Below are positions 12,449-30,141 of a stretch of DNA of 32,000 nt, piece by piece. The DNA comes from Telmatocola sphagniphila. Its GTDB lineage: Bacteria; Planctomycetota; Planctomycetia; Gemmatales; Gemmataceae. The stretch is taken from contig NZ_CP074694.1 of NCBI RefSeq assembly GCF_018398935.1, positions 5,010,001 through 5,042,000 of the forward strand. The letters run 5' to 3'. The position numbers and the translations under genes are program-made. The notes under the pieces are model-generated. The model worked only from the letters and a program-made list of their open reading frames with translations, did no database searches and had not been told where the DNA came from. The stretch's first letter is position 1, and every line of letters starts with the position of its first letter.

Positions 12449-12452
12449 GAAT

Positions 12453-13412
12453 TCATACAGCCACGGAGGTGCCGAACTTCGAATCCGAGAGAGGGTAGTA
12501 GGCGGGTTCTTCCACGGAAGAAGTATCATTGGCATTGGCCGGTTCAACCGCAGCCTCGATCGGGACCACCACTTCCGCGATCGGTGGTGCAAAATCGGCA
12601 GGCAGCATCGCTTCGCGTTCGATGACTTCCGGCATGGGAAGTCGAAGCAGGAAGCGCACCAGACCACAGGGAAGACCCAGCGCCTGCAGCGGCGTGGCCA
12701 CAATCAGCTGCAAATCCAGCCAGAGAGTCATGTGGCGCAGATAGTAGAGATCGTAAATGACCTTTTGCTGAACGCTATGCAGATCCACATCGGGCGGCAG
12801 ATAGACCTGGGCCATGCCGGTCACCCCCGGCTTCACCAGCATCCGATAGCGATAATTCGTCACCGTCTGTTCGAGCACCGAGATAAATTCCGGTCGTTCC
12901 GGTCGCGGTCCGACGAAGCTCATTTCGGCTTGCAGGATATTCAAAAGTTGCGGCAGCTCATCCAGATGGGTGATGCGCAAAAACTTCCCGATCGGCGTTA
13001 CTCGATTATCGTTGCGACTGGCCCACTTGGCCCCCGATTGCTTTTCACAGTTATGGGCCATCGAACGAAACTTGACGATGCGAAACGGCGCTGCCAGTCG
13101 GCCCAGGCGCGTCTGCGAATAGAAAGCCGGGCCACTGGAAGTCAGCTTCACCAGGATGGCGATGACCAGAACGATTGGAAACAGCAAAACCGTCAATAAA
13201 GAAGCCAGCAACAGATCGAAGGTCGGCTTAATTTTGAGATAGGCCGATTGTCGAACCAGACCAAGACTCTGAAGCAATTCGAGCCGCCGCAATTCTCCCG
13301 GAGGCAAGCTTGTAGCCGCGGCCAGCGGGTTGCGATAACCCAAACGGGACTGAGGCCTACTGCTCCCGATGATAGCCTGGCTGTCTTCGTTGAAACGGGG
13401 TTCCGAAGTCAT
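12453..13412 (-). CDS. Polyprenyl-phosphate glycosyl-1-phosphate transferase (bacterial sugar transferase family, initiating enzyme)
   Basis: 319 aa with one TM helix (LLASLLTVLLFPIVLVIAILV). The catalytic core is FRIVKFRSMAHNCEKQSGAKWASRNDNRVTPIGKFLRITHLDELPQLLNILQAEMSFVGPRPERPEF. An unusual acidic/Pro-rich C-terminal tail of about 70 aa follows. Confidence 0.9.
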   Translation of the reverse strand: MTSEPRFNEDSQAIIGSSRPQSRLGYRNPLAAATSLPPGELRRLELLQSLGLVRQSAYLKIKPTFDLLLASLLTVLLFPIVLVIAILVKLTSSGPAFYSQTRLGRLAAPFRIVKFRSMAHNCEKQSGAKWASRNDNRVTPIGKFLRITHLDELPQLLNILQAEMSFVGPRPERPEFISVLEQTVTNYRYRMLVKPGVTGMAQVYLPPDVDLHSVQQKVIYDLYYLRHMTLWLDLQLIVATPLQALGLPCGLVRFLLRLPMPEVIEREAMLPADFAPPIAEVVVPIEAAVEPANANDTSSVEEPAYYPLSDSKFGTSVAV

Positions 13413-13492
13413 GAAGCTGTCCGTCGAAATTCCAAATAACCACAGCCGGAGAGAGGCCAGCTCGTAATGATAAATCTTTAAAGGCGGCGGTT

Positions 13493-13520
13493 ATTCTAAG
13501 GGGTCAATCTAGAGAATCAA
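13493..13520 (-). promoter_or_regulatory. Candidate sigma70-type internal promoter for the sugar-transferase operon
   Basis: On the minus strand the sequence reads TTGATT (13520-13515), 16 nt, TAGAAT (13498-13493). It lies about 80 nt upstream of the ATG at 13412, inside a 296-nt AT-rich gap. This is a pattern match only. Confidence 0.35.
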
Positions 13521-13708
13521 GAAAACGATTTTACGGATTACGCAGACCAATTGGTTCAGAACGGGGTTTGAATTTTCGGTTCACAACCCAACCTGAGTCC
13601 ATTAAATAAGTTTTTTAACTTACAAAACAAAATCGGCGCACCTCAGAAACAAACAAACGCACGATAATACAATTGAATTGTTATTTCTGGTATTTTCGGT
13701 CTGCCCGC

Positions 13709-15949
13709 CTACTTCGCCATGCTGACATATTGCGAATTTCCGTAGCCGTACAACTCTTCCCGGGTGCCGTTGACGATGGCCCCGGCGATCAGCACATCCA
13801 ACTGAGCCAGGCGATGCTGGGCTGAATTCACTTTCTCGAGTTGGGTGTGATTCACGAACATGCTGAAAAGCACTGAATCGGCATGGCGAGCCATGAGCAA
13901 TGTATCCGCCACCGGCAGAATGGGGCTGGAATCAATGAGGATGAAATCGAAATGATCTCGCAGCTCATTGATAATGTGCCCGAATCCGTCCATGGCCAGC
14001 TGTTGAATGGAAAGCCGTTCGGCCCGGCCGGCCGTCATAATGGTGAGGTTGGCAATCGGCGTGTCGATCAGAGCTTGTTCCGCATTCACCTCGCCGCGAA
14101 GGGCTTCGCAGACGCCCGGCGACACCGGCATCTTGAAGAACTCATGCAGCGTGGGCTTACGAAGATCGCCATCGACGAGCAGCGTCTTGCGTCCGGAACG
14201 GGCCAGACTTTGGGCGAGCGCCCGGGCTACCGTAGACTTCCCTTCCGAAGCGACCGCACTGGTGATCAGGACCACCTTCAATTGGCTTGCTCGAGCAGTG
14301 TGAAGCAGAATCGTCCGGGCACTATCGATCGATTCGGTGAGCAGGGTATGCCAGCGCAGATCGCTGGCGGTTGGTTTCTCGGGCAACCCATGTTCCAGCA
14401 ACGCCTTGGAAGGGCATTTGGGTAAGGAACCGATTAGTCTCATTCCCACATCGAGGACGATTTCATCGATGCCGCCAAGCCGACGGGCTCGGAATTCCAG
14501 AAAAGCGAACAACAGCAGAGTGGCCCCGAATCCGAAGATCGCTCCCAGAGCCGAAATTTTTACCCGGCGTTCCCGGTCGTTGGGAATTTCCACGGTGGCC
14601 GGTTCGAGTTCCTCGATGCCCTGTTTGGCGGTGATTTCCAGCTTGGCCTGAGCTTCTTTACGCTTCAACGAAGCATATTCCTCCTGGGCTTGTTCCAGAT
14701 CGATATCCTTACCGTCCAGAAGTACCCGGCCACTGACCTTGGATTTCAGGGAATCCCGGCGAAGCTTCAAGGTGGCGATATCGTTGGCGAGAACTTTCAA
14801 TTCCGCTTGTTTGCTGGCTATCGAATCCCGGGCTTCCTTATCGAATTTATCCTTGGCTTGCTCCTCCAGATTCTTTCGCGCCTGCTTGCGGCACTCGTCG
14901 AGTTTCTTCTGATTCTCGGTCAGATCGCTTTCGATTTTGACAATCGTCGGGGAGCCGGGCTCGTATCGCTTCCGGTAGTCTTCCAGCATCTTGTTCAGTT
15001 CGCGATTTTTCCGCGTCAGTTCAATGAACTCGTCATCGGTGGTAAGAAAATTGTTGATGGTCGCCTCGGGAATCCGGAAGCGATCTTCCGAATTCAAACG
15101 GTTTTGCAATAATTCCAGGCTCGATTTGGTTTTGCTCTCTTCGCGTTCCAGATTATTCAGTTCGCTCATCAGGCTCAGATACTCACTCTGAAACTGCATC
15201 TGTTGCGCTTCGACGGTGGCCTTGGTTCCGGAATTGTCCTTCAGTTGATTTTCCAGAGCATCCCGAATCTTCTTGAGCCGCTTTTCGGATTCGGTAACTT
15301 GGGCGTGAATTTCCTGATAGCGCTCCTGGCGGGCGGCACTTGCTCGGCCGGTGACCTCCGACATGTAGGAATTTTCTACCGCGGTGACGAGCTTTCCAAT
15401 CTCCCTATCCCGATCCCCTTCAAGCCGGATGCGGATGATTTCCGGACCGGATGGGAAATCCACTACTATTTCACGCTTCAGAAGCTTGATGGCGTTGTCG
15501 ATCGACCCTCGTTCCTGGATCGTTTCCAGCTCGGCGATCCCCGGCATTTCCAGCGCTTTCTTGAGGACCAGCCGGCTCAGAATTAACTCTTTGTGGGTTC
15601 TTTGGTCGATCTGCGATTCCGGGGCACGGATGGTTTCAGACTGGTCGCTGGGAATCAGCCGGAGTTTGGTGTACGCGCTCGGCCTGGTCGGAGGCAGGAA
15701 CACCCAGACAACCGCGGCCAGCAGGGCGCCCACAATCAGGCCGTAGAAGCTGGCCTTTTTCCAATTGCTTCGCAGCGAACGCAGCAGGGTTACTGCATTC
15801 AGCGGGCGAGGTGGCACGACGTGCATCGCGGGCTTGGCAATCGATTCCGGCAAGTCTCGCCAACCTTTTTCAACTCGGGCAGGAGCCGCCGTTTCCGGGG
15901 ATTTCGGCAGGGGATCAGTCATCTCAACCTCAGGTCGCAAATTTTGCAT
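13709..15949 (-). CDS. Polysaccharide co-polymerase / tyrosine autokinase (Wzc/EpsG-like, PCP-2a type)
   Basis: TM1 is FYGLIVGALLAAVVWVFL. A long coiled-coil periplasmic region follows, then TM2 (ALGAIFGFGATLLLFAFLEF). The kinase domain has Walker A ITSAVASEGKST, Walker A' LLVDGDLRKP and Walker B FILIDSSPILPVADT. The tail is Tyr-containing (EELYGYGNSQYVSMAK). The first ATG is at 15949. An in-frame GTG at 16006 is the alternative start used by the track. Confidence 0.88.
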   Translation of the reverse strand: MQNLRPEVEMTDPLPKSPETAAPARVEKGWRDLPESIAKPAMHVVPPRPLNAVTLLRSLRSNWKKASFYGLIVGALLAAVVWVFLPPTRPSAYTKLRLIPSDQSETIRAPESQIDQRTHKELILSRLVLKKALEMPGIAELETIQERGSIDNAIKLLKREIVVDFPSGPEIIRIRLEGDRDREIGKLVTAVENSYMSEVTGRASAARQERYQEIHAQVTESEKRLKKIRDALENQLKDNSGTKATVEAQQMQFQSEYLSLMSELNNLEREESKTKSSLELLQNRLNSEDRFRIPEATINNFLTTDDEFIELTRKNRELNKMLEDYRKRYEPGSPTIVKIESDLTENQKKLDECRKQARKNLEEQAKDKFDKEARDSIASKQAELKVLANDIATLKLRRDSLKSKVSGRVLLDGKDIDLEQAQEEYASLKRKEAQAKLEITAKQGIEELEPATVEIPNDRERRVKISALGAIFGFGATLLLFAFLEFRARRLGGIDEIVLDVGMRLIGSLPKCPSKALLEHGLPEKPTASDLRWHTLLTESIDSARTILLHTARASQLKVVLITSAVASEGKSTVARALAQSLARSGRKTLLVDGDLRKPTLHEFFKMPVSPGVCEALRGEVNAEQALIDTPIANLTIMTAGRAERLSIQQLAMDGFGHIINELRDHFDFILIDSSPILPVADTLLMARHADSVLFSMFVNHTQLEKVNSAQHRLAQLDVLIAGAIVNGTREELYGYGNSQYVSMAK

Positions 15950-16062
15950 GGGGTCTTCATTTTTTACGAATTTTGCGCGGACTCCGTCCCTCTGGGTGCA
16001 AAACACCTACATCGAGGGATGGACTATTCGTTCTGACTTTCGCGCCGCAGCACTCGAGTCCG

Positions 16063-16617
16063 TTAACGGGCGATGTCGATCATCCATTCGTCGATTTCGA
16101 TGGATACGCCTTGTTGCAGCATGTCCACTTCGACGAAAAATCGTCCTTTAGTTCCCTGTCTCAGCCACTTGCCGCGCAAGCCCTCCAGGGGGCCCGCGAC
16201 GATCTCCACCAGCTGTCCAGGCTGGAGTCGATTTTCCGGGCGCAGACTCTCGCCGTTCTGCAGGATTCGATAAACCTGGGTGAGGTCGGACCAGAGTCGG
16301 TTTTGATCGACGACTTTGAGACAGGAAGCGATTTGGTTGGTTTCCAGGGCAATCTGTCGGGCGTAAACATCGCCGTACAGAAATACATAGCCGGGGAAGA
16401 GCGGTGCGTAGGAGCAGCTTTTGCCCTGTCGGCTTGGGAGCGGTCGGGCATCCCAGGGTAAAAAAAAGCTCACATTACGGGAGAGCAGTTTGCGCGCAAT
16501 CGATTTTTCTACCCGGGAGCGGGTATGCAGAACCCACCATTCGGCGGTGGGCAGTTCAGCGGGCTCCGAGAGCAGAGCATCCGGATAAATAAACGGTTCC
16601 CGTTGCAGAACCGGCAT
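16063..16617 (-). CDS. NusG-family specialised paralogue (RfaH/UpxY/LoaP-like transcription antitermination factor)
   Basis: NGN-like N-terminus: WWVLHTRSRVEKSIARKLLSRNVSFFLPW. KOW-like C-terminus: GQLVEIVAGPLEGLRGKWLRQ. The ATG at 16617 is preceded by AGAGGA with a 6-nt spacer. The track start at 16656 is a TTG. It is the first gene of the polysaccharide locus. Confidence 0.75.
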   Translation of the reverse strand: MPVLQREPFIYPDALLSEPAELPTAEWWVLHTRSRVEKSIARKLLSRNVSFFLPWDARPLPSRQGKSCSYAPLFPGYVFLYGDVYARQIALETNQIASCLKVVDQNRLWSDLTQVYRILQNGESLRPENRLQPGQLVEIVAGPLEGLRGKWLRQGTKGRFFVEVDMLQQGVSIEIDEWMIDIAR

Positions 16618-17434
16618 CGCGAGTCCTCTAGCGGCGCAAATTTCATGCCAGGCCAACCACTTCGGGTGGTTTTGGCTGACTGAATCTTAGAACAAGACGC
16701 CTGTTTTTGTCGGAGAATAATGATTCGGCCGGTTAATACACATTTACGCTCTAAACCGTGGAGGCGGATGATCAGGGCGCACATCGACTTGCGCGCTCTA
16801 TCACCCCTGCTGTCCGTGCCGAATCCTTCGATATGGAGTGCGGATTTCCCGAGGTGTCAACTTACTGTTTAACCTCAAGGAAGCGGTAGTTATTTTAAAT
16901 GGGCTCCCGGGGGTTACAACAGTAAATCCGCGCATGGGGAACAAAACCGATTCCCCCGAAAGACCGATTGTAGCGGTTACGCGAAATGGGCACAATTCTT
17001 CAAACGGCACGCGCACCGTTTGGTCGAACTCTGATTTTTTTTAATCCCAAATGATCGAGTTGCTGGGCATAACCGATTAGAGGCACAAGGGATCTGCTAG
17101 CGCGCGGATACTGGCTTTGGATCTATGAGAATTTCTCACAGATTTGAAACCCTAAGTGTCTATGCAGCGCAGAGATAGGAATTTGTCGGCACAATCCGTT
17201 TTTCGGAAACGATCCACATCCCTGGCTCGTCATTACTTAGGTAAACGGATTGACACTAACCCTAGAATCTTTTCACATGTTACTAGGTGGGGAAATGCTG
17301 AGCATTAAAAACTGTCGTGGATTACCCGAAGTGTTTATTCGGTAATTGGATGTGTCTGTCGTTAGAATTAGTCACAAAAATTTTTGCCCCGTTCGAAATC
17401 ATAGGTTTTTGGTCGGCCAACCGGAGTAAGTATC

Positions 17435-20400
17435 GTGTCGAAATTCTCTAGTCGTCGTTCTTGGTTTTCTGCCAAGCTGCCCCTTTCGCTGCTGGGTTTC
17501 GGTTCTGAAAAATCCCCGCGCAAGCACCATAAGACCAAATTGGGGCTGGAATCACTCGAAGATCGAACGGTCCCGACGATCTCGCTGGTCAACGCTCCGA
17601 ACTGGATCGAACAGGGAGGGTTGATCACCAATGCCTCCTCCAACACAACTAGTAGTACTCCCGGGCTCAATAACCAGGCAGTTGGCACCATCAACACGGT
17701 GGCCACCCCTTACGGCAATGCCAACATCATCTATGCCGGTGGTTCCAACGGCGGTGTCTGGCGGACGCTCAACGGCGGTCTGAGCTGGTCGCCACTCACC
17801 GACCAGATGCCCTCCAATTCGATCAGCAAGATCGTTATTAATCCCTTCAATACGAGCCAGGTTCTGGTCGGTCTGGGCGCCACCTCCTCCGGAGCGGCCA
17901 ATGGCTACCCCACTATCAGTGGCGATCTGATCGGCCTGTATTACTCGACCAACGCTGATGCCGCCGACCCGACCCAGGTGAAATGGACGATTATTTCCGG
18001 AGCCACAGCGACCAATCCCAATGCTAACCTCTTCGTCGGCCAGACGATTACTGGCTTGGCCATTCGCAACAATTACATGCTGGTGTCTGATTCCCAAGGC
18101 CTCTATCGTTCGATCGATGGCGGCAAGACCTGGGCCTTGATCAGTGGCACGGGTGGTCTCCCCGCCATGGGCATCTTCGACCTGGCCGAAGTTCCTCCTC
18201 CCCGCGTTCCCCCGCTGGTTTTAACCGAACCGACTAAGCCGGATGACTTCTACGTTGTCGGTCAAGGTGGCCTGTTCCGCTCCACGAACGGGGGCGTGAC
18301 CTGGACCAATATGAACGTAACATTCGCGGAGAACGACGGCACTGCCGTGACTCTGACGAATGCGATCAATGCAAAGATTTCCGTCCACTTCGACGTGTAC
18401 GACTACGTCGTCTATGTGGGTGTGGTAACTCCGAACCAATTGAATCCAGCAAAAACTCCTGCCGCTTTACCGTTGGTTCAAGCGATTCCTGAGGGTACCC
18501 AGGAAGTCTGCCTCAGTTGGATCAACCTGTCGCTGGCCAATCCGGTCTGGACCGCGATGGATCAACCCCGGCAACTGACTCAGGCCCAAGGCCCAGTACC
18601 TTGGATGATCGGTTTTAACCTTGAAGGAATTGATCCTACGACGCTGGGCATGACCAGTGCCACGATCAATAATCAGTCAGGCATTCTAGTTAGTTGGGCG
18701 GAAGCCTTCAGCAATTATCACACTGGGGATCGCGTTCGAGTCACCAACATTCCCATTCAGTCCGTCAATCCGGACGTCGACGGTGCTAACGGCGACTGGC
18801 AGATTATCAAAGTCAATGCTTCCCAGATTTTACTCATAGGCGCAACCTTCAACGGGACCTACGGTGGCAACCAGCAGTTCCCTAATCCGCAGGCCCTAAT
18901 TCAGCTTTGGGAAGATCCGACCTATGGCAGCACCGGAGCTACGAATTTCTCCATAGTTGCGGACAACTATAACTCGAACGTCGTTTACATCGGGGGCGAT
19001 TTCACCGATACGAACTGGGCTAATACCACGGCAGGAGCCGCAGGAAATACCGGTGTCGTTCTCGAAGGCAATCGACTCGCCTTCCATTCGGCCGGTCGTT
19101 ATAAGTACAGCTATTTACCTTATCAGGGAAGCCCACCTCCTTTTCAGGAAGCCCAATGGCAGGCTCTGACGAACGGTTTCACGCCGGCCTCGGAACCCGC
19201 AAATGGTATTCTGACGACGCCTTCGTTGGGTACGGCCCCGTTCAGCGGTAGCCGACAACTCATTATGGATGCGAATTACGGCTTGTTGGATGCTACCGAG
19301 GGTGGCCTCTACCAGCTGAAGAAATTCTCCTCCACGAATTTCCCCCTTTCGGCAGACTTCCCAACCGGCTCCTGGACTTCTTTGAATCAGGGTCTTAACG
19401 TCGGCGAAGTGAATGCCGTCGGCCTGGATGTGGCCAATAACATCATCGTGGCTGGTACGGCGACTCAGGGCTCTATCGTTCAAAGTGCCTCCGGAAGCCA
19501 GATCTGGAATACGATTGACAACAACCAAAACACGTCGACTCAACGAGGGAGCGGGTATTTCGTATACGTCGACAATACGGGTACGACTCAAACGATTCGT
19601 TACACCCTCGGTAACGAAGCTTTCAGTGCCCTGGGTGCCGGTGTAGATCAGCAAATTTTCAACACCAGTAACACGCAGGTTGGCACCACCCAGCAAAATA
19701 TCTTCTCACAAACGAATTACAATCCGTTCGTAATCAACGCCGTCGATCCGACACGAGCCTTATTGGGTGGTACGACGACGAATTCAGTTACAGGACCTTA
19801 CGGCTTAGTGGAAATTACTGGTGTGAGTTCGGCTAACCCGGTACTAACCGCGGTTACGCCTCCCAACATGTTTTCGCAACCCAGCCAGGTTCTGAGCATC
19901 GCCTACGGCGGCAAGGATCCCGATGGCACGCTCGAACCAAACGTCGCCTACATCGGCACCAGTTCGGGGCAGATCTACGTCCGGGCGCCGGGGCAGAATG
20001 AATTCTTCCCGAAATTCCCGCCTTCGTATCCCGTGAAGCTGGTCACCGGGATCGTCATGGATCCTAATAACTGGAAGATTGCCTATGCCGTCCGGGGCTC
20101 GGACGTCATCATGACTGTCGATGGCGGCAATACCTGGACGAATATTACCGACAACCTGATCAACTCGGTTTCCAACCCGATCGGCAACGGCATTCAGATC
20201 ACCGATCAATTGAGTTGCATCGCTTTGTGGACCGATCCCAGTAACCCCACCAACCAGGAGCTGGTCGTCGGTGGCCGGGGCGGTTACTTCCGTTTGAATC
20301 TGGATCAGAATCTGAACACCGGCACCAGCTGGAGCCGCTACGGCGCCAACCTGCCCTACGTGATCGGTCAGTCTCTCCAGTTCTATGGCAACACATTGGT

Positions 20401-23400
20401 AGCCGGCACCTACGGTCGAGGCGTTTGGGAAATTCCCGATGTTTCCTCGACCATTCAGCAGGTTGTTACGGTGGTCGTCACCGATTCGGTCGGCGGCCGA
20501 AATATCTTAATTTCTCAGGATCCCACGCTTCCGAATAACGTCGATATCACGGTTTACGACAGCAGCGGCAACGTCGTCGAATCGGCCAGTTACGACCGCT
20601 CCACGTTCCAGAATTTGATCGTCAACGCCAAGGGAGCGGGCGATACTGTCACGGTTCGCAACTCGACCGGCTCGAATCCCAACACCGTGGACTTCGTCAA
20701 CTTCCAGCTGACCATCAACGGCGACAACGATGCGGGAGCCAAACTGATCGTCGATGACTCCGGGAATACTGTCGGTAAGTCGTTAACGGTGACCTCGAAC
20801 AACATCAGCGTCTACCCGGGGGATAAATACTTCGGCAACGGCGGTTACATTACCTACACCGGCTACGCAAATGGTACCGGCACCATCAACCTGGGTAATG
20901 GCGGAGACACCACAACGGTTAGCGGCTACACTTTCCACACATTGATCATGAACGATGGCAATGGCGGTAACAAACTGACCATTACCGGCACCAGCCCCAA
21001 CGCAACTGATTCACTGACTTACACCAGCGGAACGGGCAATGATACTGTGCTCATCACTGCCGATACTTCGATCCTGAACATCAATACCGGCGGCGGCAAC
21101 GATAACATTTCAGTCACGAGTGAAGCGGCAACCGGCACGATTAACATCTCGGCCGGCGATGGCAACGACACCGTCTACTTCGGAAATATTCTGGCCAACA
21201 TCATGGGGGTCGTGAATGCCGACGGCGGCACGGGTAACAATACCATCGTGTTCGACGATTCGGGCTCGGCTTCCTCGACCGGAACGATCAATAATCTGAT
21301 GATCACCGGCTTTGGCATGCCGAAAGGCATCTCTTACACCAACTTCACAAATATCACTGTGGATGGCAGTGCGACGGGCAACGATAACATTACCGTCAAT
21401 AACACGGTGGCCAACGGCACGACCACGATCAACACCGGCTCGGGCAACGACAACATTACCGTCAACAATGCTTCCGGCATCACCAACATCTTCATGGGGA
21501 CCGGTAACGATAACGCCACGGTCAACAACGCCACAGGCATTCTGTCGATCTACGGCGAAAGCCAGGGGCAGACTTCGGGCTCAGCCTCGAACTTCGTCAA
21601 CTTTGCCCTGCGGGCCAGTGCGGCGGGCAGCACCGTGAACCTGATCAGCCCGTTCAGCAGCACGAACTTCAACGTGTCGTCGAACGCGACGATTCAGCAG
21701 GTGAACAACGGCGTTCTCAGCAAGATTCAGGGGAACACGAACATCACCGGCGGTACCGGCACCGATGTTCTGAATCTCAACGATTACAATTCTCCTTCAA
21801 GCACCGGCAACTTCTCGGCGACGCAGATGTCCGGTTTCGGCATGGGCAGCGGACTGCTGACCTACGGCGGTGTCGGCCTGGTTAACTTGAATCTGGCCAA
21901 TGGTCCCGCTAGCGACAACGTCACGGTCAGCGGTACGATTCAAGGCACCACCAACATCAATACCAACGGCGGTAACGACACGCTGACCATCCAGAACGCC
22001 TCGGGCACGGTGAACGTGGCCGCGGGCGGCGGCAACGACAATATCACCATCAATAACTTCGACGGTCTGACCGCGACTGCGGGTGTCTTCGGCGTGATGA
22101 CGGTGACTGGTGGTGGTGGCAACAACATCTTCTCCCTCCAGAAGAACTCCGCGAAGGTTGTCATCAACGGTGTCAGCGGCAACAACATCTTCAACATTTC
22201 CGGCTCGGCGACCCCTGCGGGCGTGGGTACGAGTGGTACGCTCGCAGGCATTCAAGGCGTCGTCCAACTCGATGGCGGTACCGGAACGAATATTCTGAAC
22301 GCCAGCGACTACGGAGCCATCGCCAGCACGGGTACTATCAATACTTCCCTGATCACCGGTTTCGGCATGGCCGCCACCGGCATCAGTTACACTCGGTTCG
22401 CCACCGCCAACATCAACTCCTCCAACGGTCCGGGCAGCGATTTGATCCAGATCGCCAGCACGATCAGCGGTACGACGAACGTGTACACCAATGCGGGTAC
22501 CGATACCGTCAACGTGGTGAAATTCAACGGTCCGCTGAACGTTTACGGCGGCGTCGGCAATCACACCTTTAACGTGGCTTCGGATGCCAGCACCAACCTT
22601 GGAACCGTTGCCAATGTTCAGTATCCACTGACCATCAACGGCGGCGGCGGTCAGAATACCCTGAATATCAGCAACTATGGGGCGGTCCCCAACGCACTCC
22701 CCGGTAATCTGACGGGTACCTTGAGCGCCAGCAGTCTGACCGGTTTCGGCATGGCCGCCACCGGCATCGTTTACAAGGGCATCACCACTCTGAATCTGCA
22801 GCTGAACAACACCGGCAACGTCAGTCTGAATGTTACCGGCACAGGTGCCTCCACTGCCACCAACGTTTATGGCAACGGCGGCACCGATGCCTACACGATT
22901 CAGGGGAGCAGCCTCACCGGGATCAACACGTTCATCGGTGGGGCGGGCAATGCGAATAGCTTCATCGTCAATGCCGGAACGGGCATCACCGGCAGCGCCG
23001 TCCAACTGATCGGCGGACCTTCCGGCAACATTGGCAATAACACGGTTGTGTTCAACGGCCGAACTTCGAGCGATGCCTTCAAGTTGAGCCTGGGTGTCAA
23101 TAACAACCAGTTGAGCGGGTTGGGCGCCCCCGTCAACTTCAACAATATTGAAGATGTCTCCACCAACGGCAACGGTGGCTCCGACACCTTCACTCTCACC
23201 AATAGTCTGGGTATCGGTTTTGGAACTCTGGCTAACCCCAGTACGGGTGTCGTCTACCGTCCGACCGGAGCCAGCTCGGGCGACTTCCGCTTCAATATCG
23301 ATCCGACGACGGGCCTCTCGGCCAACCTCGCTCAGACACCGACAATCCACTTCTCGAGCATTACCGGAAACGTCACTTACAGTGGCAATCCGACCAATGG

Positions 23401-24874
23401 AGCGAAGGATGTACTGGTCGTTCTAGGAACGAGTACGACCGGTCAGAGCTCAGGGTTGCCGTATAACGAAACTACCAGCGCCAACGGCAATGACACCTTC
23501 GTCATCACCGATTCCAGCCTGACATTGAATAACGTCGGAACGACCGCGAACCCCGGTCTGGGCGCGATGCATGGCATCACCTACACCTCGACGAACTTGG
23601 CCGAACTCTACGTCTTCACCGGTAATGAAACGGGGAACAAGGGCGATACCGTAACGGTAACTCCTTCTAAGAATTTGACCATGCTTATCGACGGTGGGCT
23701 GCCCTCCGGTGTCACACCGGGAGATACGCTGAACATCGTTACCAATGGCACGCACACGATTAACACCGTATCCGACCCGACGCTGGGTCCACCGCATTTC
23801 GTCCTGACACAGGGCGACGGCTCCTCGGTGGGTTATCTCAATTTTGAAACCGTCAATTCCGGTAGCACCGGTGGCGGTGGTGGCGGCGGCAGCGGTGGTG
23901 GCGGCGGCAGCGGTGGAACCACCTCGTCGATTATCGCAGTAGGCAGCGCCGGTGGTGTGACGGGTACGGTTCAGGTTTTCAATTCCAATGGAACCCTGCT
24001 CCGACAGTTCGTCCCTTATGCCGGATACATGGGCGCGGTACACGTGGCCGTAGGCGATGTCAATGGCGATGGCATTCCCGATATCATCACCTCGCCGGGC
24101 GCTGGTGTCGATCCGCACGTCGAAGTATTCGATGGTGTGACCGGAAACCTGATCTACAGCTTCGATGCCTTCGCACCGACCTTCGTGAGCGGTATCACCG
24201 TGGCCGTGGGTGATCTGAACGGCGATGGTTACGGCGACATTATCGTCGGAGCCGGGGCCGGCGGACCTCCGCACGTCATCGTCTTCAGCGGTAAGGACCT
24301 CACCGTTCTTCGCAGCTTCTACGCTTATGCCCAGGGATTCCTGGGTGGCGTGACCGTGGCGGCCGGAGATCTGATGGGCGATGGTAACATGGATATCATC
24401 ACCGGCACTGGTCCGGGCAGCCCGCCGCACGTCGAAGCCTTCCGCTACAGCGACATGGCTTTGGTCCGCAGCTTCTATGCTTACGATCCCGCCTTCCTGG
24501 GTGGCGTGTCTGTGGCGGCCGGCGATCTCACGGGGAATGGCTATGCCGACCTCGTCGTGGGAGCAGGTGTGGGTGCTTCTTCTCACATCGAAGCATTTGA
24601 CGGCCAGACGAACAACCTGGTCGCCAGCTTCCTGGTCAACAACAACGGCGTGTCTTCAGGCGTCGGTTCAATTCCTCGTCAGGCCGCGGCAGTGGTCGCC
24701 GTCGGGGATCTGGGAAGTACCGGCACCAATGCGATTCTGGTGGGCAGCGGCCCGGGTACTTACTCGACAATTCGCAGCTTCCGAATCACCCCGGCCTTCC
24801 AACAGGGCCAGAGCCTCCAAGCCTTCACACCGACGTTCGGCTTCGGGGTGTGGCTCGGTGCCAGCCAGGATTAA
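17435..24874 (+). CDS. Giant (2,479 aa) putative secreted/cell-surface protein: LEDR-type leader, Asp-box/BNR propeller-like region, repeated TGFGM/GxGND modules, Gly-Ser linker, FG-GAP-like propeller
   Basis: GGAG at 17423-17426 lies 8 nt before the GTG at 17435, and the ORF is uninterrupted for 7,440 nt. Asp-box-like motifs are VWRTLNGGLSWSPL, LYRSIDGGKTWALI, LFRSTNGGVTWTNM and IMTVDGGNTWTNIT. (T/S)GFGM occurs at aa 1291, 1466, 1641 and 1769. There are five VA(V/A)GD(L/V)xGxG repeats at aa 2204-2430. The gene ends in a double stop TAATAA followed by a terminator. Confidence 0.92.
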   Translation: MSKFSSRRSWFSAKLPLSLLGFGSEKSPRKHHKTKLGLESLEDRTVPTISLVNAPNWIEQGGLITNASSNTTSSTPGLNNQAVGTINTVATPYGNANIIYAGGSNGGVWRTLNGGLSWSPLTDQMPSNSISKIVINPFNTSQVLVGLGATSSGAANGYPTISGDLIGLYYSTNADAADPTQVKWTIISGATATNPNANLFVGQTITGLAIRNNYMLVSDSQGLYRSIDGGKTWALISGTGGLPAMGIFDLAEVPPPRVPPLVLTEPTKPDDFYVVGQGGLFRSTNGGVTWTNMNVTFAENDGTAVTLTNAINAKISVHFDVYDYVVYVGVVTPNQLNPAKTPAALPLVQAIPEGTQEVCLSWINLSLANPVWTAMDQPRQLTQAQGPVPWMIGFNLEGIDPTTLGMTSATINNQSGILVSWAEAFSNYHTGDRVRVTNIPIQSVNPDVDGANGDWQIIKVNASQILLIGATFNGTYGGNQQFPNPQALIQLWEDPTYGSTGATNFSIVADNYNSNVVYIGGDFTDTNWANTTAGAAGNTGVVLEGNRLAFHSAGRYKYSYLPYQGSPPPFQEAQWQALTNGFTPASEPANGILTTPSLGTAPFSGSRQLIMDANYGLLDATEGGLYQLKKFSSTNFPLSADFPTGSWTSLNQGLNVGEVNAVGLDVANNIIVAGTATQGSIVQSASGSQIWNTIDNNQNTSTQRGSGYFVYVDNTGTTQTIRYTLGNEAFSALGAGVDQQIFNTSNTQVGTTQQNIFSQTNYNPFVINAVDPTRALLGGTTTNSVTGPYGLVEITGVSSANPVLTAVTPPNMFSQPSQVLSIAYGGKDPDGTLEPNVAYIGTSSGQIYVRAPGQNEFFPKFPPSYPVKLVTGIVMDPNNWKIAYAVRGSDVIMTVDGGNTWTNITDNLINSVSNPIGNGIQITDQLSCIALWTDPSNPTNQELVVGGRGGYFRLNLDQNLNTGTSWSRYGANLPYVIGQSLQFYGNTLVAGTYGRGVWEIPDVSSTIQQVVTVVVTDSVGGRNILISQDPTLPNNVDITVYDSSGNVVESASYDRSTFQNLIVNAKGAGDTVTVRNSTGSNPNTVDFVNFQLTINGDNDAGAKLIVDDSGNTVGKSLTVTSNNISVYPGDKYFGNGGYITYTGYANGTGTINLGNGGDTTTVSGYTFHTLIMNDGNGGNKLTITGTSPNATDSLTYTSGTGNDTVLITADTSILNINTGGGNDNISVTSEAATGTINISAGDGNDTVYFGNILANIMGVVNADGGTGNNTIVFDDSGSASSTGTINNLMITGFGMPKGISYTNFTNITVDGSATGNDNITVNNTVANGTTTINTGSGNDNITVNNASGITNIFMGTGNDNATVNNATGILSIYGESQGQTSGSASNFVNFALRASAAGSTVNLISPFSSTNFNVSSNATIQQVNNGVLSKIQGNTNITGGTGTDVLNLNDYNSPSSTGNFSATQMSGFGMGSGLLTYGGVGLVNLNLANGPASDNVTVSGTIQGTTNINTNGGNDTLTIQNASGTVNVAAGGGNDNITINNFDGLTATAGVFGVMTVTGGGGNNIFSLQKNSAKVVINGVSGNNIFNISGSATPAGVGTSGTLAGIQGVVQLDGGTGTNILNASDYGAIASTGTINTSLITGFGMAATGISYTRFATANINSSNGPGSDLIQIASTISGTTNVYTNAGTDTVNVVKFNGPLNVYGGVGNHTFNVASDASTNLGTVANVQYPLTINGGGGQNTLNISNYGAVPNALPGNLTGTLSASSLTGFGMAATGIVYKGITTLNLQLNNTGNVSLNVTGTGASTATNVYGNGGTDAYTIQGSSLTGINTFIGGAGNANSFIVNAGTGITGSAVQLIGGPSGNIGNNTVVFNGRTSSDAFKLSLGVNNNQLSGLGAPVNFNNIEDVSTNGNGGSDTFTLTNSLGIGFGTLANPSTGVVYRPTGASSGDFRFNIDPTTGLSANLAQTPTIHFSSITGNVTYSGNPTNGAKDVLVVLGTSTTGQSSGLPYNETTSANGNDTFVITDSSLTLNNVGTTANPGLGAMHGITYTSTNLAELYVFTGNETGNKGDTVTVTPSKNLTMLIDGGLPSGVTPGDTLNIVTNGTHTINTVSDPTLGPPHFVLTQGDGSSVGYLNFETVNSGSTGGGGGGGSGGGGGSGGTTSSIIAVGSAGGVTGTVQVFNSNGTLLRQFVPYAGYMGAVHVAVGDVNGDGIPDIITSPGAGVDPHVEVFDGVTGNLIYSFDAFAPTFVSGITVAVGDLNGDGYGDIIVGAGAGGPPHVIVFSGKDLTVLRSFYAYAQGFLGGVTVAAGDLMGDGNMDIITGTGPGSPPHVEAFRYSDMALVRSFYAYDPAFLGGVSVAAGDLTGNGYADLVVGAGVGASSHIEAFDGQTNNLVASFLVNNNGVSSGVGSIPRQAAAVVAVGDLGSTGTNAILVGSGPGTYSTIRSFRITPAFQQGQSLQAFTPTFGFGVWLGASQD
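23876..23916 (+). repeat. Perfect tandem 18-bp repeat (2.3 copies) encoding the (GGGGGS)2 linker
   Basis: ggtggtggcggcggcagc occurs at 23876-23893 and again at 23894-23911. A partial third copy, ggtgg, follows. The repeat lies inside the giant ORF (aa 2146-2161). Confidence 0.95.
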
Positions 24875-24907
24875 TAACTGCCAACTTCGAATTAAGAACA
24901 CCACCCG

Positions 24908-24937
24908 CGGGGCGATTTATCGCCCCGTTTTTGTTTT
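24908..24937 (+). terminator. Rho-independent terminator of the giant gene
   Basis: The stem is cGGGGCGA / TCGCCCCg with loop TTTA (24908-24927). It is followed by TTTTTGTTTT (24928-24937), 34 nt after the stop codon. Confidence 0.85.
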
Positions 24938-24952
24938 AAGCGAGGGAATCGC

Positions 24953-24981
24953 TTGACATTTTTAACGCTGTTAAGTATCAT
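24953..24981 (+). promoter_or_regulatory. Near-consensus sigma70-type promoter with an embedded palindromic operator candidate for the TetR-efflux operon
   Basis: TTGACA (24953-24958), a 17-nt spacer, then TATCAT (24976-24981). The spacer contains the perfect inverted repeat TTAAC-GCT-GTTAA (24962-24974). A related site, TTAAC-ACC-GTTAC, lies at 25037-25049. Confidence 0.55.
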
Positions 24982-25079
24982 ACCGATGTTAAATTTTTTG
25001 CTCGATGGTCTGCGAGCTTTTTTCGCGACTATTAATTTAACACCGTTACATGATTTTACAACGTTACGGACTCTCCCCC

Positions 25080-25740
25080 ATGACCTCCACGAACACCAGC
25101 CAAGAGAGAAGAGAGAAACACAAGATCGAACTGCGCTCCAAAATCCTGGATGCTGCCCGGGAATTGATCGTAGACCAGGGGGTGGATCAATTTTCGATGC
25201 GAAAGCTGGCCGCAAAGATCGGTTACACGGCCACGGCGATCTATTTCCATTTCGCGGATAAAGAGACGTTGATTCAGGAACTGGTCGATCTCGATTTCAT
25301 CAAGTTCCGCGAGCAGTTCGACGGCCTCGAACAGAAAGCCGACCCGATCGAGCGGATTCGCCTGATGGGTTTAGCCTTCGTTTCCTTCTTCTCGCGCAAC
25401 CCCAGTCACTTTCGATTTTTGTTCATGACGCCGAATCTCAAAATGGTCCCTTCGGCGAAGGTCGTCACCCAAGGCAATCCGGCGGAAGACAACTATTGCC
25501 TTTTGAAATCGACGGTGGAAGAGGCGCTCGCTCAGAATCGGTTTCGCGAAGAGTTGCGGGACAGCGACGAAATCTGCCAGATCCTGATGGCGGTCGTGCA
25601 TGGGGTGGTTTCGAATCACATTTCACATTTGCCGGGAAGCCCATCCGTGGATCGAATTTCGCCCGGTAGAACAAACGGCTCAGAGTGCCATCACCGCGGT
25701 AATTCGCGGCTTGCTGCGACAACCGGAGGAGATGAAATGA
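25080..25740 (+). pseudogene. TetR/AcrR-family repressor with an apparent +1 frameshift near codon 185
   Basis: The N-terminal HTH is RSKILDAARELIVDQGVDQFSMRKLAAKIGYTATAIYFHF, in the frame of 25080. After about 25630 that frame gives odd text (PGSPSVDRISPGRTNGSECHHRGNSRLAATTGGDE) and runs without a stop into the next gene. The +1 frame gives HPWIEFRPVEQTAQSAITAVIRGLLRQPEEMK-stop. Its TGA (25738-25740) overlaps the ATG of the next gene (25737) as ATGA. The ATG at 25050 is an alternative start. Confidence 0.65.
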
Positions 25741-26816
25741 ATCGATTGACCGCGATCGGCTTGGGACTGTTCATTTTTGCCGTCCCGGGCTGCAAAAAGG
25801 AAATCGAAGAAGCGCGCGAGATCATCCGACCGGTAAAAGTCACCCAGGTTCGCTACGGCCAGACCACCGACCGGGCCAGCTATACCGGCGTGGTGAAAGC
25901 CCGCTATGAAGCCGAACTGGCCTTCCGGGCTAGCGGCAAAATTTTGAGCCGGAAAGTGGAGCTGGGCCAGCGGGTCAAGGCCGGGCAGGTCATCGCCGAG
26001 TTGGACCCTCAAGATTACGTGCTCTCCATGAAGGCCTCCGAAGCTTCCCTGGCAATGGCCGAGGCCGATGCCAAGCAGGCCATCGCCGATGAAGTCCGCA
26101 ACCGCGATCTGGTTCGAGGCAAGGCCATTTCGCCCGCTGATTACGATCGCTACCGAGCGGTCGCCGATGCCCAGATCAAGCGGGTGGAACAGGCGAAAAG
26201 TCAGCTCGATATTTCCCGCAACAAATTGATTTATACCACGCTGAAAGCGGACCACGATGGCGTCATCACCAATCTGATGTTCGAAGTGGGTAAAGTCGTT
26301 GCCGAGGGCACACCAATCGTCGTGGTGTCCCGGACCGATGAACTCGAAGCCGTGGTGGCCATCCCGGAAAATCGGGTGACGGTGGCTCAAACCGCCAAAG
26401 CCAGCGTGGAACTCTGGTCCGATAAGGATCGAAAATTTGCGGCCCGCCTGCGGGAGCTGTCGCCAAATGCGGACCCGATCACCCGCACCTATACCGCCCG
26501 ATTCCATATCGAAAAACCGACCGAGGAAGTTCGCCTCGGCATGACGGCCACCGTGCATCTCGACTCTCTGGATGTCGGCCGCCAGCTGGTCACTTTGCCG
26601 CTGTCGGCCGTCTACGATTCCGGCAAAGGCCCCCGCGTCTGGGTCGTCGATCCGAAAACCGGCAAACTCACTTCCCGTGAAATTCGCGTGAAAGAATACC
26701 ACCAGGACACCATTCTGATCGCTTCCGGGCTGCAGGTGGGAGATCACGTCGTGACCGGGGGCACGCAAAAATTGGATGAAGGCCTGACGGTGCGCGTCGT
26801 GCTCGACAAGCCGTAA
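25737..26816 (+). CDS. RND efflux periplasmic adaptor (membrane fusion protein, HlyD/AcrA family), lipoprotein-type signal
   Basis: MNRLTAIGLGLFIFAVPGCKK has a signal peptide and lipobox-like VPGC. Biotinyl/lipoyl-like and beta-barrel segments follow (GKILSRKVELGQRVKAGQVIAELD; IYTTLKADHDGVITN; VWVVDPKTGKLTSREIRV). In the ORF track it is fused in-frame to the TetR ORF (25050-26816). Confidence 0.88.
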   Translation: MNRLTAIGLGLFIFAVPGCKKEIEEAREIIRPVKVTQVRYGQTTDRASYTGVVKARYEAELAFRASGKILSRKVELGQRVKAGQVIAELDPQDYVLSMKASEASLAMAEADAKQAIADEVRNRDLVRGKAISPADYDRYRAVADAQIKRVEQAKSQLDISRNKLIYTTLKADHDGVITNLMFEVGKVVAEGTPIVVVSRTDELEAVVAIPENRVTVAQTAKASVELWSDKDRKFAARLRELSPNADPITRTYTARFHIEKPTEEVRLGMTATVHLDSLDVGRQLVTLPLSAVYDSGKGPRVWVVDPKTGKLTSREIRVKEYHQDTILIASGLQVGDHVVTGGTQKLDEGLTVRVVLDKP

Positions 26817-26864
26817 CGGATTGGCCCGCGCCCGGATAGACAGTAGGACCGAACGAGAAATTCC

Positions 26865-29800
26865 ATGAAGGCTATGAATCTTTCCGAGTGGGCGGTGAAG
26901 CATCGGTCGCTGGTGCTTTACTTCATTCTCAGCAGTGCCGTCGCCGGATTGATGGCCTACCAGAGCATGGGTCGGGCGGAAGACCCGAGCTTCACGCTCA
27001 AGGTGATGGTGGTGAACGCCTACTGGCCCGGCGCGGATGCGGAGGAAATGCAACGGCAGGTGGCCGATAAGATTGAGAAAAAGCTTCAGGAAGTTCCTTA
27101 CTTCGACAAAGTGATGACCTATTGCCGGCCGGGCGAGGCCTTCATGCAAGTGATTTTGAAAGATACGACTCCGCCGAAGAAAGTTGATCACTGCTGGTAT
27201 CTGATCCGCAAGAAAATCGGAGACATTCGCGGCAATCTGCCTCAGGGTGTCGTCGGCCCGTTTTTCAACGACGAATACAGCGATGTCTATGGGAATGTGT
27301 ACGCTTTGACCGCCGACGCAGGCTTCTCGCAGGCGGAACTGAAAAAGTACGCGGAAGAGATCCGCCAGCGACTTTTGCATGTCGAGCAGGTCGACAAAGT
27401 GACCATCGGCGGCGATCAGCAGGAGAAAGTCTTTGTGGAAGTTTCGCATCGGAAGCTCGCCACGCTGGGTATCTCTCCGAATCAGATATTCGATGCCTTG
27501 CAGAAACAGAATACCGTCGCCTCGGCCGGCAGTGTGGAGACCCAGAGCGAGCGCGTGCAAATCCGCGTGGAGGGTTCCTTCGGTGCGGTCGATCGTATAC
27601 GCGAAATGCCCATCGAAGCTGGAGGGAAGCTGCTGCGGCTCGGCGACATCGCGGAAATTCGTCGTGGCTATGAAGATCCGCCGAGTTACATCATCCGTCA
27701 CAACGGTCGACAGTCGATTCAACTCCAGGTATCGATGGCGGAAAACGGCAACATTCTCCGGCTGGGCGATAGTCTCCGCGAAGAAGTTCAAAACTGCCTG
27801 AACGATCTGCCGCACGGCGTCCATCTCGACCTGGTGAGCGATCAATCGAAGGTCGTTCACGAATCGATTGGCGAATTCACCAAATCTTTTGCCGAAGCCC
27901 TGGCGATTGTTCTCGTCGTCAGCTTCCTGACCTTAGGGCTGCGCACGGGTATCGTAGTGGCTCTCTCGGTGCCGCTGGTGCTGGCGATCTCCTTGACGAT
28001 CATGAAAGCCACCGGCTGGAATCTGGATCGCATCACACTCGGCTCTTTGATCGTCGCACTCGGCTTACTGGTCGATGATGCCATCATCGCCGTGGAAATG
28101 ATGCTGGTGAAGATGGAACAGGGCTGGGATCGCATGAAAGCGGCCTCCTTTGCCTGGACTTCAACGGCTTTTCCCATGCTGACCGGGACTTTGGTGACCG
28201 CCGCCGGTTTTCTGCCGGTCGGTTTTGCCCCTTCGAGCGCTGGGGAATACGCTGGGGGCTTTTTCTGGATTGTCGGTTTAGCTTTACTGGTCTCCTGGGT
28301 AGTGGCCGTGGTGTTCACGCCTTACCTGGGTTACATGCTGCTTCCCGATTTTTCGAAACGCAAGTCGCATAACGCCCACCACGACCTTTACAGCGGCCGG
28401 TTCTACCGTCTGCTGCGCTGGTTAATCGACAAGTGCGTGCGCTTCCGTTTTCTGGTGATTCTGGGCACCGGTGCTTTGTTTGTTGCGGGTGTGGCCGGGT
28501 TCACTCAGGTGGAGCAGCAATTTTTCCCCACTTCGGAACGGACTGAGGTCACCGTCGATCTTCGCCTGAAGGAAGGCTCTTCATTTGAAGCCACTTTGAA
28601 TCTCGTGAAAATTCTGGAGGCGGAACTGCAGCCGGAGCTGGGTCAGAAAATTCTTTACTTCGATACCTATACGGGGGCCGGTTCGCCGCGCTTTCTGCTG
28701 ACGCTTAATCCGGACTTACCCAATCCCAATTTCGCGAAAGTGGTAATTCAAACCCCCGATATCGCCGCTCGGGAGCTCATCCTAACCCGATTGCGGAAAA
28801 TCTTCAACGAAGACGAACGGTTCAGTATCGCCTGGTGCCGCGCTCAACGATTGGAACTGGGGCCACCGGTCGGTTTCCCGGTTCAATTCCGCGTCGTCGG
28901 CGTCGATGCCAAAAAGGTGCGCGAGATCGCCTACGAAGTGCGGGAGCTGATGCGCGAAAACCCGAATGTGCGGGATCCGAATCTGGAATGGAACGAAATG
29001 ACCAAGCGGGTGAATCTGAAAATCGATCAGGATCGACTGCGGGCCATGGGTTTATCGCCGTTTGATGTGAGTAGCGCGCTTCAAACGATGCTTTCGGGTT
29101 ACGCGGTCACTCAATATCGGGAGGGTATCGAACTCATCGATGTCGTCGTGCGGGCCGTTCCTACGGAGCGTTTGAATCTCGACGGCTTGAAAGATATTAA
29201 TCTGACCAATCGACAGGGCTCACCCGTTCCTTTGTCGCAAATCGCCACGCTGGAGTACAGCCACGAGGAGCCTATTCTCTGGCGGCGCAATCGCGATATG
29301 AACATAACGGTGCGCGGCGATGTGCTCGATGGTTTGCAGGCGCCGGATGTGACCATGCAGGTCTGGCCGGAAATTCAAAAACGCATCATCCCCAAATTGC
29401 CGCCCGGCTACCGGATCGAAATCGGGGGTTCGGTCGAGGAATCGGCCAAGGCCAATGATGCTTTGATTTCCATTTTTCCCGCGATGCTGCTGGCCATGCT
29501 GACGCTGCTAATGATTCAGCTGCAAAGCTTCCAACGGGTGATGCTGGTCTTCATGACTGCCCCGCTGGGTATCATCGGTGTGGCGATTTTTCTCCTGGCG
29601 TTCCATCAACCATTCGGGTTCGTGGCTACCTTGGGAGTGATCGCCCTGGCCGGAATGATCATGCGAAATTCGATTATTCTCGTCGATCAGATCGATCAGG
29701 ATATCGAGCACGGCATCGAACCCTGGGAAGCGATTGTCGGCTCGACCGTTCGCCGCGCCCGGCCAGTCGTACTGACTGCGCTGGCGGCTATCCTGTCGAT

Positions 29801-30038: not shown

Positions 30039-30141
30039 TCCGTCGAGGAATGGAATCATTTCATTTGGAAAGCGAGTTTCGTATCCTTGGCTGAGTAGGC
30101 TCCCCTGAGATTTCGAAACTCGACTTCCTATAATTCTCTCC

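Follow-up and report, generated by a model that had tools for sequence, protein, structure and literature searches.

A giant gene of Telmatocola sphagniphila with a GH74-like double propeller, an RTX-like rod and an FG-GAP propeller behind a recurrent N-terminal motif

Background

What does a single gene of more than seven kilobases do in a planctomycete, and how could its product leave the cell? The question is raised by a gene on the forward strand of Telmatocola sphagniphila DNA (contig NZ_CP074694.1, positions 5,010,001 to 5,042,000). The whole stretch that was analysed, 32,000 nucleotides long, is called the window below; the gene lies at window positions 17435-24874 and encodes a giant protein of 2,479 amino acids (aa). 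We read this protein, with moderate confidence, as an exported, Ca2+-stabilised and non-enzymatic surface or matrix protein of an adhesin-like kind, built from a scaffold or binding double propeller, a rigid rod, a hinge and an FG-GAP head. The protein is made of known folds and belongs to a conserved family without a name that is found in Gemmataceae and Pirellulales. Three features go beyond the routine: a leader without a hydrophobic core, an uncatalogued super-repeat and the lineage-specific loss of a conserved site in the head.

T. sphagniphila forms non-cellular stalks and rosettes, attaches to cellulose particles and is weakly cellulolytic (PMC3327967). Adhesion or carbohydrate binding is the role usually given to giant genes of planctomycetes (PMC5177795; PMC12673574). 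A surface or matrix protein would fit both this general view and the stalks, the rosettes and the cellulose attachment of the organism. Giant genes, those of Planctomycetota included, are reportedly also treated in a 2008 study by Reva and Tummler.

An intact and conserved gene

The gene is one intact open reading frame (ORF) of 7,440 nt that starts with GTG. The coding sequence (17435..24874, +) is found in the ORF list, is called in the same form in an independent Logan assembly and is matched by collinear orthologues. A Shine-Dalgarno-like GGAG (17423..17426, +) can be read 8 nt before the GTG. The N-terminus cannot be extended, because an in-frame stop lies upstream at 17402-17404 and the stretch from there to the GTG holds no start codon. 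At the other end, the sequence reads a tandem stop TAA TAA (24872..24877, +) and then an intrinsic-terminator-like element (24907..24938, +), consisting of a hairpin (24907-24928; 9 pairs, 7 of them G-C) and the T-run TTTTTGTTTT. The first-pass annotation, made from the letters alone, had described an uninterrupted stand-alone gene of 7.4 kb with its own Shine-Dalgarno sequence, double stop and terminator, and all of these are present. We were not able to find a sigma-70-like promoter on the forward strand in the 778-bp intergenic region upstream (window 16657-17434). Rfam and tRNA scans of the window, this region included, gave no matches.

A repetitive gene of this size could be an assembly product. 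The Logan re-assembly of run SRR14506984 corresponds to window 16865-32000, has 0 mismatches in 15,136 bases and calls an identical gene of 2,479 residues. The super-repeats in the rod (described below) are only 33-39% identical at the protein level, which makes a collapse of repeats in the assembly unlikely. The collapsed repeats that the first-pass annotation had named as a possible objection are thus unlikely: the two assemblies are identical and the repeats are too divergent.

The best database matches (P0001-P0007) are unnamed hypothetical proteins of 1,906-2,148 aa that are collinear with the giant protein over the full length at about 29-33% identity. Collinear orthologues at 28-38% identity are found in metagenome-assembled genomes (MAGs) of Fimbriiglobus, Gemmataceae and Pirellulales. 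These come from a scan of contigs, one genome per GTDB species, with the family alignment A3; the same scan with the single query protein gave 114 pattern matches and no relative. The A3 matches are full-length in Fimbriiglobus MAGs (L004-L007, L024), Gemmataceae MAGs (L008, L013) and a Pirellulales MAG (L009), while that in Fimbriiglobus MAG L011 covers aa 600-2452 of the query. Since full-length collinear orthologues exist, the mosaic is a conserved architecture and not a one-off.

One may still ask whether the gene is a decaying, non-functional relic or a collapsed-repeat artefact. Many family-conserved residues are lost, and the exact protein is missing from a collection of 15 billion proteins in which its neighbours are present. 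However, 2,479 codons are free of stops, two assemblies are identical, 36 of 41 structural G/P/W columns are retained, two of the orthologues (L008 and L011) share the losses, and repeats that are 33-39% identical are too divergent to collapse. A relic is therefore scarcely credible to us, and the artefact was rejected on the identical independent assembly and the divergence of the repeats. The gene of T. sphagniphila is real, intact and conserved.

Two side observations concern the same gene. The exact product was found in the 15-billion-protein collection with neither V nor M as its first residue, nor was it returned by the homology search; the neighbouring AcrB and LeuD genes correspond to NCBI entries QVL31155.1 and QVL31156.1. 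The public annotation may use a different start or handle the giant gene otherwise. Furthermore, the gene holds antisense ORFs of 517 aa (21797-23350, -) and 378 aa (23450-24586, -). The coding region around them is conserved and collinear, so that they most likely arise mechanically from its composition.

The N-terminal double propeller

The region aa ~48-1005 (17576..20449, +) is a tandem beta-propeller module resembling glycoside hydrolase family 74 (GH74), as indicated by an AlphaFold2 (AF2) model, Foldseek and a profile search against PDB sequences. GH74 xyloglucanases consist of two tandem seven-bladed propellers. The AF2 model, built from a 34-sequence alignment, is nearly all beta, with a predicted local distance difference test score (pLDDT) of 74 and a predicted template modelling score (pTM) of 0.80. 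In the PDB, the best 23 Foldseek matches of this model are all GH74 (E to 6e-23; target-normalised template modelling score, TM, 0.5-0.63), with alignments that cover the entire target, and there is no sortilin within the top 50. Both the model and these matches give two tandem seven-bladed propellers that form a cleft, as in GH74. The family profile ranks PDB sequences in a similar way: GH74 (3e-29) comes before the dispase autolysis-inducing protein (2e-12), sortilin (1e-8) and, more weakly, Ycf48.

The first-pass annotation had seen here a sortilin/BNR-like propeller with long insertions between its blades at aa 300-880. Its observations were accurate, as the four S/T-x-D/N-G-G-x-T/S-W Asp-boxes lie at aa 111, 226, 283 and 894, and the GTYGRGVWEIPD with which the region ends (aa 991-1002) sits on family-invariant G/R/G/W columns. 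The assignment, on the other hand, has to be changed. The relation to sortilin is weaker than that to GH74 by the E-values given above, and the Pfam scores stay under the cut-off both for Sortilin-Vps10 (PF15902, 26.3 bits against 33) and for BNR (PF02012, 23.7 bits against 27). The stretch aa 300-880 is the remainder of the two-propeller module together with one inserted small domain. A single sortilin-type ten-bladed propeller with insertions between the blades was rejected, since the GH74-like tandem fits better. The count of three propellers in the whole protein was approximately right: two are in this tandem, and the FG-GAP propeller is the third.

The inserted domain is a small beta-barrel like the FCCH domain of ubiquitin E1, at aa ~405-487 in the first propeller region (18647..18895, +). 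The corresponding model, PF16190, scores over its cut-off in two relatives (P0071, P0118) and below it in two more (P0001, P0009), and the hits were mapped to the query through alignment A3; in the query itself, Pfam gives no match over the insert.

The module is widespread. At E <= 1e-5 we count at least 451 related proteins, from Planctomycetota, Verrucomicrobiota, Actinomycetota, Xanthomonadales and other groups. It is combined elsewhere with RTX, Calx-beta, PKD, DUF11, dockerin or further domains, and many of the relatives, 750-1,060 aa long, consist of the module alone.

A conserved site lost in the head

Is the head an enzyme? The GH74 enzymes are the top structural and profile matches of the module, NCBIfam gives a partial sub-threshold match to the "F510_1955 family glycosylhydrolase", and the organism is weakly cellulolytic. 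An active, cell-associated xyloglucanase or beta-glucanase of GH74 type, held on a long stalk for the slow degradation of plant polymers, would be one suggestion. However, identity to GH74 is only 10-14%, and the sites speak against activity. In the HMMER alignment to 2cn3, the first catalytic Asp (Xgh74A Asp70, in ARADIGG) aligns with Ser104 of the query, and the position is V, T or S in all 33 homologues. The PDB entry 2cn3 is the D70A mutant of Xgh74A, in which this Asp is replaced by Ala. The region of the second catalytic Asp (Xgh74A Asp480) lies outside the sequence alignment; its candidate motif, DDGG, is TEGG in the query.

In addition, the query has lost a polar cluster that is otherwise conserved in the family. 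The family motif PHADSR reads PFSGSR, DDGG reads TEGG, QDxG reads TQGS, GDG reads GSG and YE[S/D] reads NSV. The residues of the cluster that are substituted in the query are H603, D605, D622, Q676, D677, D706, Y783 and E784. We rejected the active enzyme on the lost Asp and the degenerate polar cluster and consider it very unlikely. To judge from the alignments, the N-terminal head is probably no enzyme.

The query deviates at 21 of the 79 columns that at least 85% of the 33 homologues conserve, and no homologue deviates at more than 16. It keeps 36 of the 41 G/P/W columns and loses 11 of the 30 polar ones. Most full-length orthologues retain the polar motifs. However, two intact orthologues, in Gemmataceae MAG L008 and Fimbriiglobus MAG L011, have also lost the H, the DD and the GDG, and have an insertion where the query has one. 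As both the losses and the insertion site are shared, the pattern points to an old, tolerated change, in which a sub-lineage lost the site but kept the fold, rather than to decay.

The rod and its repeat family

A connector with low model confidence, which also takes in the first turns of the rod (aa ~1006-1140; 20450..20854, +), follows the double propeller. Its AF2 pLDDT is 33-50 (model residues 1-130), and it is conserved in the A3 consensus. The rod proper, aa ~1141-1900 (20855..23134, +), is an RTX-like beta-roll according to self-similarity, AF2 and Foldseek. It consists of super-repeats of about 115-175 aa, namely r1 (1251-1425), r2 (1426-1600), r3 (1601-1722) and r4 (1723-1880), with degenerate copies on either side. 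Each of the four is marked by GFGM (aa 1292, 1467, 1642 and 1770) within an invariant TGFGM...Y element.

The AF2 model of the rod has a pLDDT of 71.5, and more than 80 over most of the repeats, with strands of 4-5 residues every 10-11 residues. Foldseek matches it best to the RTX domain of CyaA (E 1.4e-4), and further to the RTX rolls of serralysin and lipases, to the Ca2+-dependent antifreeze beta-helix MpAFP and to RsaA. The TM scores of these matches are low, which is to be expected for such a long rod. There are 13 GxGx[DN]xUxU turns, about one per 20-24 residues. Given the modelled strands and the RTX proteins on top of the Foldseek list, with weak scores, the predicted fold of the rod is RTX-like.

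The repeat family itself is uncatalogued. A profile of the four repeats, searched against a library of 1.84 billion cluster representatives, finds 1,904 of them at E <= 1e-3, 715 at <= 1e-10 and 163 at <= 1e-30. A single protein can hold as many as 22 copies, the longest of these proteins have about 8,000 aa, and the conserved core of the repeat is about 115 residues (window 21185-23074; P0209-P0347). Neither in the query nor in the top profile matches did we find a Pfam or NCBIfam model over the repeat, and the rod-repeat profile (A4) has no relative among PDB sequences. Some relatives of the rod carry HemolysinCabind. The first-pass annotation had spoken of an unclassified repeat module, or beta-helix, of about 830 aa, and this description holds insofar as the repeats are real, a beta-roll is predicted and curated models leave it uncovered. 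A widespread beta-roll super-repeat of about 115 residues, which has no Pfam or NCBIfam model, is now identified.

The C-terminal part

Between rod and hinge there is a beta-rich region, aa ~1901-2145 (23135..23869, +), which has longer strands in the AF2 model (pLDDT 50-85). BLAST alignments to P0014 and P0015 extend over this region, and relatives conserve it, but it has no Pfam match and no relative among PDB sequences. The hinge that the first-pass annotation had written as (G5S)2 is there in the exact form G7-S-G5-S-GG, at aa 2146-2161 (23870..23917, +).

The protein ends in an FG-GAP beta-propeller of the integrin-alpha type, aa 2166-2479 (23930..24871, +), supported by Pfam, a PDB sequence match and a custom repeat hidden Markov model (HMM). 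Pfam scores are well over the cut-off for FG-GAP (PF01839, 61-67 bits against 22.1) and FG-GAP_3 (PF13517, 59.8 against 26.9), in 4 stretches. The custom HMM finds six copies, where five had been counted before: strong ones at 2201, 2253, 2305 and 2357, another at 2420-2451 and a weak one at 2167-2196. Four of the repeats have D-x-N/T-x-D/N-G-x-x-D loops, and the best PDB sequence match is to the Ca2+-loop blades of integrin alpha-V (E 9e-10).

As the first-pass annotation had stated, no C-terminal anchor or sorting signal is visible: Pfam and NCBIfam give no sorting or anchor domain (type IX secretion C-terminal domain, PEP-CTERM, LPXTG) in the giant protein, and the sole Por_Secre_tail match (E 0.76) lies on an internal segment.

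These data also bear on a structural role. The protein could be a component of the envelope or of an appendage, such as an S-layer-like lattice, a stalk or a fibre, and not an adhesin that binds a ligand. The S-layer protein RsaA is among the weak matches of the rod, stalks and rosettes are made by the organism, the site in the head is degenerate, and its composition is highly repetitive, with little charge. On the other hand, the RsaA matches are weak (E 0.15-6, TM 0.12-0.19) and we found no self-assembly feature or anchor. Moreover, FG-GAP propellers with intact Ca2+ loops, as in integrin alpha and related lectins, usually bind ligands. We consider the structural role unlikely, but it keeps some weight.

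The N-terminal leader

The leader, aa 1-47 (17435..17575, +), is basic (24% K+R) and has no strong hydrophobic core by hydrophobicity and motif counts. It reads MSKFSSRRSWFSAKLPLSLLGFGSEKSPRKHHKTKLG-LESLEDRTVP, with LESLEDRTVP at aa 38-47. It had been called atypical, which is not the case within its family, as we see a recurrent N-terminal motif that resembles LEPR-XLL. Among 185 relatives, 64 have the motif hExhExRxx[LP] within their first 130 residues. It is also present in the first 150 residues of 20 among 139 proteins that have unrelated heads and share only the rod repeat with the giant protein. It is absent from all 1,821 internal windows of 150 aa taken from those proteins, so that the motif is specific for the N-terminus. 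Motif-bearing proteins have a median best 10-residue Kyte-Doolittle value of 0.46 upstream of the motif, and only 3% of them reach 2.0; of the relatives without the motif, 40% reach 2.0 within the first 45 residues.

The query has the features of the LEPR-XLL type: the N-terminal position, a basic region, LE-x-LE-x-R-x-x-[LP] and a very large repetitive protein. NF012209 ("LEPR-XLL") is an NCBI-curated model of 24 positions with a cut-off of 17 bits. It matches one relative, P0146, at 24.4 bits, while the LEDRxxP variants tested gave no match. None of the papers that we found on LEPR-XLL and on LEDR in Planctomycetes explains how either variant works.

Tentatively, one may go a step further. 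An uncharacterised route of export or sorting in Planctomycetota might recognise the basic LE-x-LEDR-x-x-P leader without a hydrophobic core, a signal that LEPR-XLL proteins of other phyla would share in a variant form. The giant protein would then be one cargo of this route, and its GH74-like head, whose site was lost in a sub-lineage of Gemmataceae, would be kept as a pure scaffold or binding module. We offer this as a possibility rather than as the expected outcome. In any case, the leader-bearing family is a defined test case for how planctomycetes export many giant surface proteins.

An RTX-like rod suggests yet another route, that of a toxin or adhesin of RTX type secreted by a type I system. 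Some of the rod relatives carry HemolysinCabind, as noted above, and proteobacterial LEPR-XLL proteins can end in RTX/serralysin domains (PMC10868602). However, the rod is internal, the C-terminus is an FG-GAP propeller and there is no HemolysinCabind match. There are also no type I genes (ABC transporter, membrane fusion protein [MFP], TolC) nearby, and the downstream MFP is paired with a pump of the AcrB resistance-nodulation-division (RND) type. Given the FG-GAP C-terminus and the lack of an ABC exporter among the neighbours, the type I toxin was rejected, and we hold this route to be highly improbable.

The proposed function

How could the parts work together in the adhesin-like surface or matrix protein that we favour? 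The basic leader that ends in LExLEDRxxP would stand in for a classical hydrophobic signal peptide and direct export. The GH74-like double propeller appears to keep its fold, as modelled; because the polar cluster and the first catalytic Asp are lost, it would be a scaffold or a binding head and not a hydrolase. The predicted RTX-like beta-roll of about 760 residues would act as a rigid spacer, which to judge from its motifs may depend on Ca2+. The glycine hinge would then free the terminal FG-GAP propeller, which is the most likely ligand-binding head because of its integrin-type Ca2+ loops. Overall, the composition (45% G/T/N/S, 2 Cys, 147 D+E against 75 K+R) is what one expects of extracellular repeat proteins that bind Ca2+. 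That the protein is exported to the surface or matrix, binds Ca2+ and has a ligand is what we infer.

Several points weigh against this picture. HemolysinCabind (PF00353) has no hit in the giant protein at E <= 5, and the GxGND-type turn is found on only one edge of each coil of about 20 residues; for both reasons, Ca2+ binding by the rod is not certain. NF012209 does not match the first 70 aa of the query or the whole protein even at E <= 10, and we were not able to link any secretion machinery to the leader. As no anchor was found, a cell-attached and a released form cannot be distinguished. Finally, sequence analysis does not allow a ligand to be named.

With this analysis, a family of giant planctomycete proteins that is listed everywhere as hypothetical has an annotation of its domains one by one.

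Genomic neighbourhood

The giant gene is divergent from a polysaccharide locus headed by a NusG paralogue, as had been described. The locus (1374-16656, -; about 15 kb) contains a hexapeptide acyltransferase, glycosyltransferases of families GT4 and GT2, Wzy_C, a Wzm/Wzt ABC pair, a triple-VanZ protein, a Bac_transf initiating transferase and a Wzc-like P-loop protein. The NusG paralogue lies at 16063-16656 (-). The locus mixes Wzy-type parts (Wzy_C, Wzc-like, Bac_transf) with the ABC-type Wzm/Wzt pair. Its protein with three VanZ domains has 510 aa (9867-11399, -).

It could be that the giant protein is functionally coupled to this locus, either by binding its glycan or by being glycosylated by it. 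The giant gene adjoins a 15-kb locus with Wzy_C, Wzc-like, Wzm/Wzt, GT2/GT4 and NusG-paralogue genes, and its product is rich in S, T and N. However, when all 18 neighbours in the window were searched with tblastn against 83 loci, none of the full-length orthologues in the GTDB loci had a homologue of the polysaccharide locus or of the NusG paralogue close by; the sole matches near them are weak similarities to the RND pump (22-23% identity; L006 and L013). The contigs of four metagenomic relatives (P0001, P0002, P0004 and P0007) have unrelated neighbours and likewise show neither the locus nor a NusG paralogue near the orthologue. NxS/T sequons are not clearly enriched in the giant protein: 57 are observed against 50 +/- 6 over the whole length, and 35 against 26 +/- 4 in the rod, which we do not find convincing. 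The gene also has its own terminator and is separated from the locus by 778 bp. The link between glycan and adhesin that had been proposed is thus unsupported; we think it improbable, and the adjacency is best treated as coincidence.

Downstream, on the same strand, follow a TetR_N-MFP fusion, an AcrB-type RND pump and a LeuD-like gene. These are efflux and not protein-secretion functions, in agreement with the earlier statement that no dedicated secretion genes flank the giant gene. The fusion (25050-26816, +) has TetR_N at aa 32-78, HlyD_D23 and HlyD_3, and is called as the same 578-aa fusion in the Logan assembly; AcrB lies at 26865-30038 (+). A near-consensus sigma-70-like promoter, TTGACA-17-TATCAT (11/12), is found at 24953-24981, before the ORF of the fusion. 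In window 31001-32000 the GC content falls to 0.425, against about 0.55 elsewhere. This low-GC part takes in the end of a 276-aa ORF (30821-31651), for which Pfam gives no match.

In the contigs of P0004 and P0007, the gene directly after the orthologue, on the same strand, encodes a protein of about 490-505 aa that has two ABC_tran domains; the window lacks such a gene. This gene may be a conserved neighbour in the sub-lineage of these two proteins.

Comparison with known systems

With the GH74 xyloglucanases, such as Gly74A of Cellvibrio japonicus (5fkr) and Xgh74A of Clostridium thermocellum (2cn2/2cn3), the query shares the tandem propeller fold with BNR/Asp-box blades. It differs from them in its low identity, in the replacement of the first catalytic Asp, in the FCCH-like insert and long loops (~960 aa against ~730) and in being embedded in an architecture of 2,479 aa that is not enzyme-like. 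The bacterial BNR/Sortilin-Vps10-like propeller proteins, annotated as "photosystem II stability/assembly factor-like" (PF15902, PF02012, PF14870), are homologous to the N-terminal module, whereas the query stays under the Pfam cut-offs and has lost PHADSR, DDGG, QDxG, GDG and YE[SD].

The rod resembles the RTX beta-rolls of Bordetella CyaA, of serralysin and lipase C-termini and of Marinomonas MpAFP in being a parallel beta-roll, as predicted, with short strands and GxGxD-type turns. Whereas RTX coils consist of two nonapeptides, those of the rod have about 20-24 residues with one RTX-like turn. It also differs in its super-repeat of 115-175 aa with TGFGM...Y, in the lack of a HemolysinCabind match and in its internal rather than C-terminal position. 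The FG-GAP propeller is like those of integrin alpha in that its D-x-N-x-D-G-x-x-D loops align with the Ca2+-binding blades of alpha-V. Unlike these, it is bacterial, has no partner beta subunit and no thigh or calf domains; six repeats are detectable by sequence, which does not set the number of blades.

The LEPR-XLL giant proteins (NF012209) also have a short basic N-terminus, then LE-x-LE-P/D-R-x-L-L/P-S/A and a very large repetitive protein, while the query and most of its planctomycete relatives carry the LEDRxxP variant and score under the cut-off of the model.

Finally, the present architecture is not described in the literature that we searched on giant Planctomycetota genes, and the relatives are all unnamed hypothetical proteins. 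Like these genes (Kohn et al. 2016, PMC5177795), the gene is longer than 5 kb and repetitive and presumably encodes a surface or adhesion protein. Apart from its leader, its super-repeat and the lost site of its head, the giant protein is an otherwise ordinary representative of the large repetitive surface proteins.

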